Source: Ionaspis alba
Lineage: Eukaryota
Direction: 5' to 3'
Length of the DNA: 42,620 bases
Assembly: GCA_964255285.1 (NCBI GenBank)
Contig: CAXUUL010000056.1
Location: forward strand, 1-42,620
Shown here: positions 2,818 through 6,680 of the stretch, one piece after another
Numbering within the stretch: the first letter of the stretch is position 1
Layout: every line of letters starts with the position of its first letter
The notes under the pieces: generated by a model
Databases searched by the model: none
Told to the model about the DNA's origin: nothing
What the model saw: the letters and a program-made list of their open reading frames with translations, nothing else
Made by a program: the position numbers and the translations under genes

Positions 2818-4086
2818 TTATCGTCTACTTTTCCTTTGCCTGCTAACGCTCGAACCAGATGCGCCAGTAGTGACATTGACATTGTACCCCTGACCGCGTG
2901 GGACAACGTCGACCTGAACACCGTGGTCTTCGTCGTCGTCGTCATCGGGATCCTCCTCGCTAGTGCTTTCTCGATGACCGCTTGCCCCGGAATATCTTTG
3001 CCGAGCTAATGCGGGATCAGAAGCGTAGGGATGTGTACCGGACGGTCCCTGTGGTTGGATCGGGTATCCGATATCAGGAGGGCCTGAGGTATTGCGCCGA
3101 GCGCTGGGGGCATATTGACGAGGTAGAGGAGGAAGCGGTGGGGAATATGCTTGGTATTGATGAGGGTCTGGAGGATAAGGAAGGCTCGACGAAGATCTTG
3201 CTCGAGGCTGCCAATCAAGATCGTCTGGCATCGGTCTTGGTGATGATGGTGCTCGACCTGGATAAGAATGTTGCTGCTGTTCGGGCACGGAGAAATATCT
3301 CTTCTGCGGACCACGGTACTGAGCTGATGGAGGACCATGCTGGAGACTATGTGACGATCCTGATCGAGATCCTGGATGGGAGGAAGGGCCATAAGGAGAG
3401 CCATGTGGCGGGGAATAATAGCCTAGCGGCGCGTAGACTGGCTGTCCGTCGGGTCCCGCCACCACAAATCCCGGTGGAGGAGCTTGTATACCAAGACCGG
3501 ATTCTGCACTGTTAGAGTTGAGCGATGACCTGCCTTTCCGTTTCCCGGCTGCTGGTACTAGAGCAGTCTGTGAGCCATTTGAGCGACCACTGCTCCGCCG
3601 CACATCACCTGCTTTCGATATCAATGCCGGTCTTTTGCTCTTTGTCTGATCGTTCTTGATTTTCCTCTCCAGTGCATCTCGTTCCGGACCAGTCAGCTTG
3701 ACGTGCGGTTTTCCCATCATCTGCGCTCGCTGTATTCTCTGCATGGCTCGCTGAACCAAAACTTCTTCCTTCTCTCGTAAAGCTACCTGCATCGCTGCTC
3801 CGCTTGTTGTGCCATCGTCATCGTCGTCATCATTGTCCGAGTCCTCGGAATCCTCCGAGTACTCGTATTTCCGTCTATCCCGCGAAAGGCGACTCAAATC
3901 TGCGCCAGTAAAATGCAATTCATCACTCGTGAACTGACGATCCAGGCCAACGCCTTGCCCATCGTCGTCAGATTCGCTGTCTATTTCCTCAAAACGCCGT
4001 TGTTCTTCCCATTCCCGTTGTTGCCTTTCCCACTCCTTCCTCCTCTTCGCCTGCCGGCCCCCTGATGGTCTTCCCCAAGGGGGCAT
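2818..4086 (-). CDS. Acidic/Pro-Ser-rich hypothetical protein ORF (422 aa from first ATG) starting 26 nt after the YIP3 stop; probably the C-terminal extension of YIP3 made by -1 frameshifting
   Basis: Long intronless ORF in the -1 frame relative to YIP3. The frame stays open upstream through the YIP3 stop as far as a TGA at about 4141-4143. It contains a structured-looking core (MQVALREKEEVLVQRAMQRIQRAQMMGKPHVKLT..ERDALER) and a GVQVDVVP C-terminal motif. Confidence 0.8.
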   Translation of the reverse strand: MPPWGRPSGGRQAKRRKEWERQQREWEEQRRFEEIDSESDDDGQGVGLDRQFTSDELHFTGADLSRLSRDRRKYEYSEDSEDSDNDDDDDDGTTSGAAMQVALREKEEVLVQRAMQRIQRAQMMGKPHVKLTGPERDALERKIKNDQTKSKRPALISKAGDVRRSSGRSNGSQTALVPAAGKRKGRSSLNSNSAESGLGIQAPPPGFVVAGPDGQPVYAPLGYYSPPHGSPYGPSSHPGSRSGSSHSLQHGPPSAQYRGPQKRYFSVPEQQQHSYPGRAPSSPRPMPDDLDWQPRARSSSSLPYPPDPHQYQAYSPPLPPLPRQYAPSARRNTSGPPDIGYPIQPQGPSGTHPYASDPALARQRYSGASGHRESTSEEDPDDDDDEDHGVQVDVVPRGQGYNVNVTTGASGSSVSRQRKSRR

Positions 4087-4134
4087 ATCGTATGGAGTTC
4101 GCGGCCGACCACCTAGACCGCCTCCTCGGAAAAA
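4064..4134 (-). other. Candidate -1 programmed ribosomal frameshift element (slip site U_UUU_UCC, spacer, stem-loop/pseudoknot)
   Basis: Minus strand: TTTTTCC (4134-4128), spacer GAGGAG, stem GCGGUC/GGCCGC (4121-4116 with 4106-4101), and loop GGUGGUC complementary to GACCAUC (4070-4064). Confidence 0.7.
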
Positions 4135-4643
4135 GCTGTATCAATCGGCTTGTCCATAAGGGCGGCGTGACCCAGAATCGTGACGCCTGTGGCACCTACA
4201 AGCCAAAGAGCCGTACTTATCGGTGATGCCCATATGAATAAAGGGACACCGATGACAAACAGCCCTGTGTAAAGTTGTGAAGTTGTGGCTCGGGCAAATC
4301 CCAGTTCCAGATCTCGTCCTTGAAGCTTCTTGATGGCGAACAGACCTACACCAACGAATATGATGTCGAATAAAAGGGTGAGGTTGGTCAGCAAACTGTA
4401 TATACTGAGCATAGCGGTGACGGCGACATAGTTGCTCGAGAAGTAGCCTAGGTTGTAGTTGACTCTGCTCTGTACTTCCCCAAAGCCCGATGGTTTTGAC
4501 AGTCTCTTGAAGTCGAGAAACTCTGATATGGGCTTTAGGTTGGCGAATCTCGTGCCGATCGATTGTGAACGGACTCTCTCCGCGAACCCTCCTAGGTTGA
4601 GCTGGGACGTGAGCGCGTCAAGTGGGATGCTGATTCGCGACAT
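4113..4643 (-). CDS. YIP3: Prenylated Rab acceptor 1 / COPII vesicle protein Yip3 (PRA1 family)
   Basis: 176 aa with the PRA1 hallmarks LKPISEFLDFKRLSKP, RVNYNLGYFSSNY, hydrophobic hairpins and ILGHAALMDKP. Confidence 0.93.
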   Translation of the reverse strand: MSRISIPLDALTSQLNLGGFAERVRSQSIGTRFANLKPISEFLDFKRLSKPSGFGEVQSRVNYNLGYFSSNYVAVTAMLSIYSLLTNLTLLFDIIFVGVGLFAIKKLQGRDLELGFARATTSQLYTGLFVIGVPLFIWASPISTALWLVGATGVTILGHAALMDKPIDTAFSEEAV

Positions 4644-4715
4644 GATGGGAGTCGGTAGGAGAGCTTGATAGACAGATGAGTGAAAGAGCTATCAGGGTAA
4701 AAAAGTTCGAGGCAT

Positions 4716-4814
4716 CTGCTTTGTGCCAAATGTCAGCCTAAAGCTGACAAGTATTTGCGAAAGGGAGGGAAGGGGATACGTAAGAACATGCAGAGTAAGG
4801 TGTGTGGGACTTAC
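4716..4814 (-). other. Putative 5'-UTR intron of YIP3
   Basis: GTAAGT donor at 4814, GCTGAC branch site and CAG acceptor at 4716, all upstream of the YIP3 ATG. Confidence 0.6.
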
Positions 4815-5372
4815 GTACTCCCTTCGAGAGGTAGTACTAGGCAGACGAGCTGGTCCTGCGCATAGAGTGGTGAAATTTATGGTTGAAGAGGAAGGAGAAG
4901 TTTGCAGCCGTGCTGAGAACAGAAAAGTACTCCAGAAATCCAAGCTCAACCAGGGTTAGGTCAAGTCCAAATCCGGAATGGCGGCTTCTTCAGCCGTTTC
5001 TAGAATACGACCATACGGAGAAAAGAGGTAATTGCCGCCGCAAGTGTGTTCTATGCTTTGATAATAATGCCTCTCGTCGCAGTCCAGAGACTTTCAGCGG
5101 AGAACCGGACACAAAACCTGCGGAGAAGTTTTCTTTCCTTTTTAGTGCCGAATATGCAAGTGCCTATGTGAAAGGATTATCTGGCTTGGGTTATAAAGTT
5201 GGTTGGCTAGTTGCCTCATTGGACCACGTCCTCGGATACGGGCTGCACCACACGGCTTAGCTCTACATAAGCTTGCCAGATTTCCTCAAGCATCAGAGTA
5301 GTTTCTTCCCTTCTTAGACCCGAAAATCGAGATTTGGGCATTCATGCATAACTTTCCTTGACAACCAAAGCC

Positions 5373-6680
5373 ATGAAAGCGTCACTATTCTTCGTCTTCC
5401 TCTTCGGAGGTCTGCTGGCGCTGGTCGCTGCTTGGGACGACAAAGGTAAGCAGTGCAGGAATTCCAACTCTGCAGCGTCTGACCTAACGCTTCTTGCCAG
5501 ATCATGAGATTTTCCGGTTGAAGGATGAATTGGAAGCCCACGAGGGAGCTGGTGTCACTTTCTATGGTACGAACTTCCACCCAAGTCCTACAGGAAAACT
5601 CACTGATACTGTACAGATTTTGTGGGCATAAAGCAGGACGCCTCGCAGGAAGACATCAACAAGGCATACAGGAAGAAGTCCAAACTTCTCCATCCCGATA
5701 AAGCCAAACAATCCTTCATCGCCTCGAAGGCAAGACCTACCAAAAAGCCTGGTCAGAAGCCGGGTGTCCATGTTAGCAAAGCACCTTCTGAGAAGGAGAT
5801 CCGCAAAGCACTGCAGGAAGCGAGTGATCGATTTGCTCGACTTGGTCTCATTGCAAGCATCCTGCGCGGATCTGGACGGGAAAGATACGATCACTTCCTC
5901 AACAACGGCTTCCCGAAATGGAGAGGCACAGGCTATTACTATGCTCGATTCCGCCCTGGCCTCGGTTCTACTCTGCTCGGACTGTTTGTCTTCGGCGGTG
6001 GCTTAGCCCACTACGGCGCATTGATACTGAGCTGGAAAAGACAAAGGGAGTTTGTGGAACGCTATATTCGACAGGCAAGGAAAGCGGCTTGGGGCGACGA
6101 ATCAGGAATAATGGCGATTCCTGGTCTGGACGCCGATGGCGGAGTGCCTGCGTCGTCTATCGCCACTGGTGCAGAAGACGAACCTGTCCTGTTAAATCGC
6201 AAGCAGAAACGGCAGCAGGAGCGTGAAAGCAAGAAGGGGAAGGAGAATAAAAGGTCGAGATCTGCAAAGCGTAGTGGGACAAGTACACCACTCGAGTCCA
6301 ACTCCACGGGACCTCAAGGTGCGAAGAAGCGTGTGCAGGCTGAGAACGGGAAGGTACTCCTGGTCGATTCCGTGGGAAACGTTTATTTGGAAGAGGACAA
6401 CGAGGACGGCGTGAGAGAAGAATATCTACTGGACTCCAATGAGATAATCAAGCCTACTTTCCGATCAACCGTGCTTTACCGGCTGCCCGTCTGGGCGTAT
6501 ACAGCAATAAAGAATCGCTTGTTACGCCCAGGCACGGAGAAGGAAGGAAATGCAGTTGTCGACGAGGACGGCTCATCTGGCTCCGAAAATGAAGAGAAAG
6601 CGGCAACTGCGGAGATCATGGCTCCTTCAAATCTGTCTGCAGCGAGTCGGAGGAAGAAGACCGGGAAGATACGACGATAA
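5373..6680 (+). CDS. ERJ5: ER-targeted DnaJ/Hsp40 co-chaperone (Erj5-like); introns 5446-5500 and 5567-5616
   Basis: Signal peptide MKASLFFVFLFGGLLALVAAW, DHEIFRLKDE, J-domain with HPD (LLHPDK), RYDHFLNNGFPKWRGTGYYY and a downstream TM segment. Confidence 0.85.

Follow-up and report, generated by a model that had tools for sequence, protein, structure and literature searches.

A candidate −1 ribosomal frameshift of the PaYIP3 type at the end of YIP3 in Ionaspis alba

Results

Two overlapping reading frames at the YIP3 locus

A stretch of 42,620 nucleotides (nt; the window), positions 1-42,620 of contig CAXUUL010000056.1 of Ionaspis alba, was analyzed. Its minus strand carries a YIP3 gene whose 3' end overlaps a second long open reading frame (ORF) in the −1 frame, and a candidate −1 ribosomal frameshift cassette, with a slip site and a pseudoknot, lies at the overlap (Table 1). 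The first frame, ORF1, matches the Pfam family PRA1 (PF03208) with an E value of 2.4e-37 and 128 bits over profile positions 2-142 of 143. It ends in GCU UUU UCC GAG GAG GCG GUC UAG, where GCU UUU UCC are codons 170-172. The second frame, ORF2, is open from 4140 to 2818 (440 codons stop to stop) and has an ATG of its own at 4086-4084 that would give 422 amino acids (aa). A shift after codon 172 gives a conceptual fusion of 172+436 = 608 aa, the size expected in a preliminary description of this locus.

All the sequence elements named in that description (slip site, stops, stems, loop and GACCATC) are present on the minus strand where it had placed them. They include a TGA at 4143-4141 that closes the −1 frame near the slip site. 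Because of this TGA, the frame change in Ionaspis alba must fall within 4140-4113, and the only homopolymeric run there is U_UUU_UCC. The closure just 5' of the slip site is not conserved among relatives. The core of the cassette occurs once in the window, versus 0 expected.

The heptamer had been called non-canonical, and U_UUU_UCC indeed departs from the viral pattern X_XXY_YYZ, as the A-site codon UCC is not YYZ. Two distances needed adjustment. The 6-nt spacer given in the preliminary description holds as the distance to the covarying 6-base-pair (bp) upper helix of stem 1, but not to the base of the full, extended stem, which begins after 2 nt; canonical spacers are 5-9 nt. GACCAUC, placed there about 30 nt downstream, was measured to lie 23 nt from the 3' end of stem 1 and 36 nt from the loop. 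It forms the 7-bp stem 2, GGUGGUC/GACCAUC, with one G.U pair.

Table 1. Coordinates of the predicted features at the YIP3 locus (positions in the window).
Feature	Position	Strand	Remarks
ORF1, YIP3/PRA1, 176 codons and TAG stop	4113..4643	-	Coding sequence without intron; ATG at 4643
YIP3 stop TAG	4115-4113	-	0 frame
TGA closing the −1 frame	4141..4143	-	Two codons 5' of the slip site
Slip site U_UUU_UCC	4128..4134	-	0-frame Phe171, Ser172; −1 frame UUU UUC
Spacer GA, 2 nt	4126..4127	-	
Stem 1, whole, bulged	4094..4125	-	
Stem 1 lower helix, GGAG with CUCC	4125-4122 with 4097-4094	-	
Stem 1 upper helix, GCGGUC with GGCCGC	4121-4116 with 4106-4101	-	
Stem 1 bulge GAA, 3 nt	4100-4098	-	
Stem 1 loop TAGGTGGTC, 9 nt	4115-4107	-	Carries the UAG stop
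Stem 2 5' arm GGUGGUC	4107..4113	-	Within the stem 1 loop; begins with the final G of the stop codon
Stem 2 3' arm GACCAUC	4064..4070	-	23 nt 3' of stem 1
ORF2, −1 frame, slip site to TAA 2820-2818	2818..4134	-	436 residues after the shift
ORF2 helical hairpin, residues 109-164	3637..3804	-	Only long confidently folded part; most invariant residues

Conservation of the junction

A search with ORF2 returned 191 homologues at E ≤ 1e-3 (best E 5e-145), 120 of which were listed. An alignment of 32 ORF2 proteins was used to scan metagenome contigs, giving 80 loci, and these were checked by tblastn with ORF1 and ORF2 of the Ionaspis alba contig. The best named relatives of ORF2, with 57-62% identity, are from Lambiella, Ptychographa and Xylographa; Lambiella and Ptychographa belong to the Lecanoromycetes, Baeomycetales. 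By this relationship the window probably derives from a lichen-forming Lecanoromycete. The named homologues among the 120 of 191 matches listed are all fungal and lichen-associated.

The preliminary description had named four properties to be looked for if the frameshift is programmed: a constant −1 phase to the downstream ORF, a conserved heptamer, suppressed synonymous variation and covariation of the stems. All four were found. At 76 of the 80 loci the ORF2 match immediately follows YIP3 and is in the −1 phase to it. These are all the loci that bear the junction, so the phase is constant in 76/76, and the remaining four start inside ORF2 at a contig end. At the 76 loci the tblastn alignments of ORF1 reach its last residue, 176; most span residues 1-176, and the shorter ones begin at a contig edge or at residue 3-4. 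Together with the Ionaspis alba contig the loci provide 77 junctions, with 53 distinct 160-nt sequences. UUUUUCN is found in 77/77 of them (TTTTTCC 71, TTTTTCT 4, TTTTTCA 2): the third base of the Ser codon varies (C 71, U 4, A 2) while UUUUUC is invariant. The position of the 0-frame stop is also identical in 77/77 junctions (TAG 72, TAA 5). The spacer is GG in many relatives versus GA in Ionaspis alba.

Synonymous variation was measured on ORF1 extended by 150 nt (678 nt), in 52 distinct ungapped sequences from 66 loci including Ionaspis alba. The mean majority fraction at third codon positions is 0.556 in codons 1-169 and 0.975 in codons 170-176. None of the 163 other seven-codon windows reaches 0.975, the maximum being 0.788. 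Among 45-nt windows across the 678 nt, the best conserved one begins at ORF1 nt 508, at the GCU preceding the U-run. In the −1 frame, the third-position values of most codons are 0.88-1.00 as far as the 3' arm of stem 2 and drop to ~0.4-0.6 beyond it. This arm lies in the ORF2 codons for a conserved W-G-R-P-S motif, whose Gly, Arg and Pro codons have synonymous third positions that either do not vary or change together with stem 2.

Contigs of two sequencing runs were compared with the window. Those of one run are near-identical to it throughout, and this run may be the source of the DNA; the other gave pieces of low depth. A 24-kb contig from the second run, apparently of another organism in the same study, matches the Ionaspis alba contig only at 4094-4157, with 4 differences in 64 nt, and over 21 nt at 3949-3969. 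This match illustrates that the cassette is far more conserved than its flanks.

Covariation and folding of the pseudoknot

Pairing was scored on an alignment of 41 distinct 87-nt junctions, to which the column numbers below refer. The 17 pairs scored comprise 4 in the lower helix of stem 1, 6 in its upper helix and 7 in stem 2, in a structure derived from one of the 41 aligned sequences. Standard pairs fill 99.1% of the 697 cells, and changes on both sides occur in 4 pairs (7 cells). Compensatory changes were found in both stems of the pseudoknot. None of 500 shuffles did as well as the alignment in paired cells, in compensated pairs or in covariation score, and when the 3' partners were slid by 1-3 columns as a control, 29-60% of cells were paired with 0 compensated pairs.

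All cells of stem 1 are paired in the 41 sequences. At its pair 24-40, 38 sequences have G-C and 3 have A-U; at its pair 26-38, 39 have U.G and 2 have U-A. In stem 2 (helix 3 of the scoring), 97.9% of cells are paired, 6 being unpaired, and three of the seven pairs show two-sided changes: pair 31-78 is G-C 18, G.U 18 and A-U 2; pair 32-77 is U-A 39, C-G 1 and U.G 1; and pair 30-79 is G-C 37 and A-U 1. The bulge reads G-A-N in 40/41 sequences.

For the single sequence of Ionaspis alba, the minimum free energy and centroid folds both give stem 1 with its bulge. The stem 1 hairpin alone has -12.7 kcal/mol and the stem 2 duplex -8.8 kcal/mol. In silico folding and covariation together thus point to a downstream H-type pseudoknot, as in viral-type signals. 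A search of Rfam over 3900-4300 gave no match at E up to 1.

In loop 3 (columns 59-72, corresponding to 4084-4071 on the minus strand), GCCC and GGGGAA do not vary, even at synonymous third positions of Pro and Gly codons. This loop could contain a small CCC/GGG hairpin or be engaged in tertiary contacts.

The ORF2 extension

ORF2 matched no family in Pfam, and its profile found no relative among solved structures at E up to 1. An AlphaFold2 model computed on the alignment of 32 proteins has a mean predicted local distance difference test score (pLDDT) of 54 and a predicted template modeling score of 0.24, with 241 of the 436 residues below a pLDDT of 50. Confident helices were predicted for residues 109-137 and 147-164, the 10-residue blocks across 111-160 having mean pLDDT values of 80-95. 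A small beta-hairpin at residues 220-234 is also confident. The model indicates that the extension is mostly disordered, with one conserved helical hairpin.

The −1-frame peptide encoded over the cassette, SFFRGGGLGGRPRTP, is identical in all nine rows of the protein alignment that reach it (9/9). These nine entries had been called from further upstream and have no Met at the position of the Ionaspis alba ORF2 AUG. With its 191 homologues, ORF2 is a conserved coding sequence with no known domain.

Relation to PaYIP3 and other frameshift systems

The preliminary description had pointed to a similar frameshift proposed for YIP3 of Podospora anserina. It exists: the −1 frameshift of PaYIP3 (Pa_1_8470) was published by Malagnac et al. 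(2013, PLoS One, PMC3777964), whose main text is the source of the Podospora data below. It was first noted in the Podospora genome paper (reference 21 of Malagnac et al., 2013) and is summarized in the review of Atkins et al. (2016, PMC5009743). The PaYIP3 mRNA carries a YIP3-like 5' ORF and, in the −1 frame, a 3' ORF with no known domain that is restricted to Pezizomycotina; the function of this 3' extension is described as unknown. Twelve cDNAs match the gene save for an intron of 173 bp in the 5' untranslated region (5'-UTR), so that the junction is unspliced. Slippage was proposed to take place on U UUU UCC at codon 170, and a stem-loop or pseudoknot 2 nt 3' of this site contains a conserved 3-nt bulge. 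The long form was seen in vivo as an 88-kDa green fluorescent protein fusion on western blots, and the ratio of short to long form is tissue-specific. In a yeast dual reporter, shifting was ~1%, compared with 0.3% for an out-of-frame control. The arrangement is kept across Pezizomycotina; the exceptions are two clades with a +1 phase and two species without the extension (Malagnac et al., 2013).

The Ionaspis alba locus shares with PaYIP3 a PRA1/YIP3 5' ORF and a lineage-specific −1-frame 3' ORF with no known domain. It also shares the placement of U_UUU_UCC near codon 170, the spacer of 2 nt, the GC-rich stem 1 and its 3-nt bulge, a 0-frame stop in the loop and pairing of the loop to downstream sequence. 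By eye, the cassette is near-identical to the Podospora oligonucleotide given in the Methods of Malagnac et al. (2013). The 6-nt spacer of the preliminary description and the 2-nt spacer of the Podospora study refer to the same RNA, measured to the upper helix and to the base of the lower helix, respectively. The two loci differ in stem 1, which reads GUGGUC/GGCCAC in Podospora and GCGGUC/GGCCGC in Ionaspis alba, by eye a further compensatory pair, and in the spacer, which is GG in Podospora and GA in Ionaspis alba. In Ionaspis alba, unlike PaYIP3, ORF2 has its own AUG, and the −1 frame is closed by a TGA shortly before the slip site. The host lineage also differs, as the best named relatives of the Ionaspis alba ORF2 are Lecanoromycetes; the main text of Malagnac et al. 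(2013), taken apart from its Figure 2 and supplements, mentions neither Lecanoromycetes nor lichens. The protein of the Podospora 3' ORF is absent from the 120 of 191 ORF2 matches listed, and no direct homology comparison was made. Finally, the frameshift was shown by experiment in Podospora and is predicted from DNA sequence in Ionaspis alba.

Malagnac et al. (2013) drew a likeness to the 1a/1b signal of infectious bronchitis virus (IBV; U_UUA_AAC with a 6-nt spacer). The YIP3 and IBV signals have in common an H-type pseudoknot in which stem 1 is long and GC-rich, loop 1 is very short, stem 2 has 6-7 bp and loop 3 is long. The YIP3 signal differs in that its heptamer is not X_XXY_YYZ, 2 nt separate the heptamer from the base of stem 1, its stem 1 is bulged and it lies in a cellular gene; the IBV signal gives 10-15% shifting in yeast versus ~1% for PaYIP3 (Malagnac et al., 2013). 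Mammalian Edr/PEG10 is likewise a −1 frameshift in a cellular gene, and its pseudoknot has a 3-nt bulge in stem 1, as pointed out in the Discussion of that paper. However, Edr/PEG10 is derived from a retroelement and uses tandem slippage on a canonical site, while YIP3 is a housekeeping gene with a non-canonical site. A third comparison is with bacterial insertion sequence (IS) elements (Licznar et al., 2003, cited in Malagnac et al., 2013), in which single P-site slippage on a hexanucleotide offers a possible route here. This route fits the free third base of the Ser codon, since tRNA-Phe re-pairs from UUU to UUU regardless of the A-site codon. The IS elements differ in being read by a different ribosome and in having no bulged pseudoknot 2 nt downstream.

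Flanking sequences

A candidate 5'-UTR intron of 103 nt was noted ahead of the YIP3 ATG, on the minus strand at 4716-4818, from its motifs only (GTACGT ... GCTGAC ... CAG). It is followed at 4692-4715 on the same strand by a seven-codon upstream ORF, with ATG at 4715-4713 and TGA at 4694-4692. A conserved 5'-UTR intron was considered for the family and set aside: among 49 distinct upstream regions of relatives, only 12 were positive in a strict motif scan, which is too few. On the plus strand, divergent to YIP3, an ORF of 357 codons (stop to stop) extends over 5607-6680. Its motif AYRKKSKLLHPDK is presumably J-domain-like.

Discussion

The Ionaspis alba locus is, with a probability that we put at about 85%, a PaYIP3-type −1 recoding gene that would produce a 176-aa Yip3 and a 608-aa long form. 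The reading as a programmed −1 frameshift, made in the preliminary description, is supported by the phase, the heptamer and the stems in relatives and by the published PaYIP3. It was presented there as a feature that might be known in part only; in fact the same feature has been in print since 2013. The YIP3 frameshift described here is the orthologue of PaYIP3 and is already known. What appears to set the cassette apart from chance is the comparison of sequences and not the folding energy, and we regard the comparative data as decisive.

Several points weigh against this interpretation. The reading for Ionaspis alba comes from DNA, transcripts and the long protein having been described in Podospora. 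In yeast, shifting was only ~1%, and the pseudoknot stimulated a canonical slip site poorly (Malagnac et al., 2013). The heptamer violates the X_XXY_YYZ rule, and the ORF2 AUG at 4086, 16 codons after the slip site, allows independent initiation in this organism. The 76 loci are not independent: the distinct 160-nt junctions number 53, and many of the contigs bear names of one series and could stem from a single project. The region is highly conserved and the covariation is based on few events; the lower 4-bp helix is invariant in the 41 sequences and is thus neither supported nor refuted by covariation. The energy of the fold is ordinary (-32.5 kcal/mol, z -1.04, with 30 of 200 shuffles as good), and we left folding energy out of the evidence because the fold is not distinguishable from shuffles. 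In addition, the nested-only consensus of RNAalifold chooses, in place of stem 1, the helix of stem 2 together with four inner pairs. RNAalifold cannot draw pseudoknots, the inner pairs it chose show no two-sided change, and the joint change of columns 24 and 40 fits only stem 1.

The ORF2 AUG raises the question whether the two frames could be independent cistrons. ORF2 would then be translated only from the AUG at 4086-4084, as a 422-aa protein, through an internal promoter, leaky scanning or reinitiation, and the overlap would be conserved for other reasons. This would account for the AUG in frame 16 codons after the slip site in Ionaspis alba and for the AUG within 20 codons in 15 of the 53 distinct junctions, and many database entries are indeed free-standing proteins of ~420 aa. 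The start codon itself is not kept. At its position the 77 junctions have ATG in only 25, and otherwise GTG (26), TCG (12), GCG (5), TTG (4), GCC (3) and GGG (2). The other 38 of the 53 distinct junctions lack an in-frame AUG in the 20 codons after the slip site; their first ORF2 ATG follows it by 25-188 codons, inside conserved protein sequence, so that ORF2 is not generally translatable alone. Nor do separate genes need the zero spacing and −1 phase kept in 76/76 loci, while the suppressed synonymous variation and the compensatory changes in the stems speak for a signal in the RNA, and a long fused protein was seen on the Podospora western blot (Malagnac et al., 2013). Initiation at 4086 is possible in Ionaspis alba, but as a general explanation it is contradicted by the relatives that lack the AUG, and we consider two independent cistrons very unlikely.

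Slippage of the polymerase on the T5 run, adding one base in a few transcripts that ribosomes would then read without slipping, would place the frame change exactly where the homopolymer run lies. The published data leave some room for it: the twelve unaltered Podospora cDNAs could not reveal 1% of altered transcripts, the yeast reporter does not tell the two mechanisms apart, and the term 'transcriptional slippage' occurs 0 times in the main text of Malagnac et al. (2013). However, putting a canonical slip site out of frame reduced the reporter signal from 1% to 0.3% in that study. Five U's are short for polymerase slippage, and it would leave unexplained the conserved, compensated pseudoknot directly 3' of the run, which is a hallmark of a ribosomal stimulator. 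This makes it a highly improbable explanation.

A short intron joining ORF1 and ORF2, as several automatic annotations assume and as 16 database proteins from lichen genomes that fuse PRA1 to an ORF2 homologue might suggest, is extremely unlikely: the 16 models join at different, mutually inconsistent places, variously deleting the last membrane segment, entering the −1 frame upstream or skipping the cassette, as gene predictors do when they have to bridge a change of frame; the best conserved 45 nt of a locus are not normally an intron; and the Podospora cDNAs are unspliced here (Malagnac et al., 2013).

In the annotations of lichen fungi, ORF2 appears either as a separate hypothetical protein of ~420 aa or fused to PRA1 by joins specific to each genome. 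The recoding of YIP3 is systematically mis-annotated in these genomes.

We return to the −1 frameshift as the preferred interpretation. By analogy with Podospora, we infer that the same frameshift occurs in Ionaspis alba. One unspliced mRNA would carry the PRA1/YIP3 ORF and the Pezizomycotina-specific ORF in the −1 frame. Most ribosomes would end at the UAG at 4115-4113 and produce the 176-aa Yip3, a Rab GDP dissociation inhibitor displacement factor of endoplasmic reticulum and Golgi membranes. At the moment of slippage, the Phe171 UUU would be in the P site and the Ser172 UCC in or entering the A site, with the ribosome held against the bulged stem 1/stem 2 pseudoknot at 4125-4064. A minority would step back one base on U_UUU_UCC at 4134-4128 and then read CGA GGA GGC onward, giving the 608-aa Yip3 with a C-terminal extension that is predicted to be largely disordered.

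Two routes for the slip itself were set out for PaYIP3. One is tandem slippage, in which tRNA-Ser(IGA) re-pairs with UUC through a middle G.U pair, and the other, preferred in the Discussion of that paper, is single P-site slippage of tRNA-Phe (Malagnac et al., 2013). A tandem slip, with the junction Phe-Ser-Arg, and a slip in the P site only, with Phe-Phe-Arg, are both possible at the present locus. Both models fit, because the −1-frame codon is UUC whichever third base the Ser codon has.

Two refinements of this mechanism can be put forward tentatively, although we regard them as rather unlikely. In the first, the stimulator is a compact pseudoknot. The lower helix of stem 1 would already be inside the mRNA channel, and unwound, when the slip site is decoded, and the stimulator would consist of the 6-bp upper stem and the 7-bp stem 2 at the canonical spacing of 6 nt. 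The lower helix and the G-A-N bulge could then serve as a regulatory module, for example as the site of a trans-acting factor; one possibility is that such a factor would set the tissue-specific ratio of short to long Yip3 reported for Podospora. In the second, where ORF2 has its own AUG the locus may yield a third product, a free extension protein.

Programmed frameshifting in the −1 direction is rare in ordinary nuclear cellular genes, and YIP3 is among the few ancient, conserved examples. Because this frameshift, its slip site, its pseudoknot and its conservation in Pezizomycotina have all been published, no new principle comes from the Ionaspis alba locus. Our analysis adds an instance in a Lecanoromycete-like fungus and 76 loci for comparison, in which the −1 phase never varies, both stems contain compensated pairs and synonymous sites freeze sharply at the cassette. 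It also adds that the third base of the slip-site Ser codon is free. For work on lichen genomes it carries a practical warning, since their annotations split the YIP3 gene or bridge it with invented introns.

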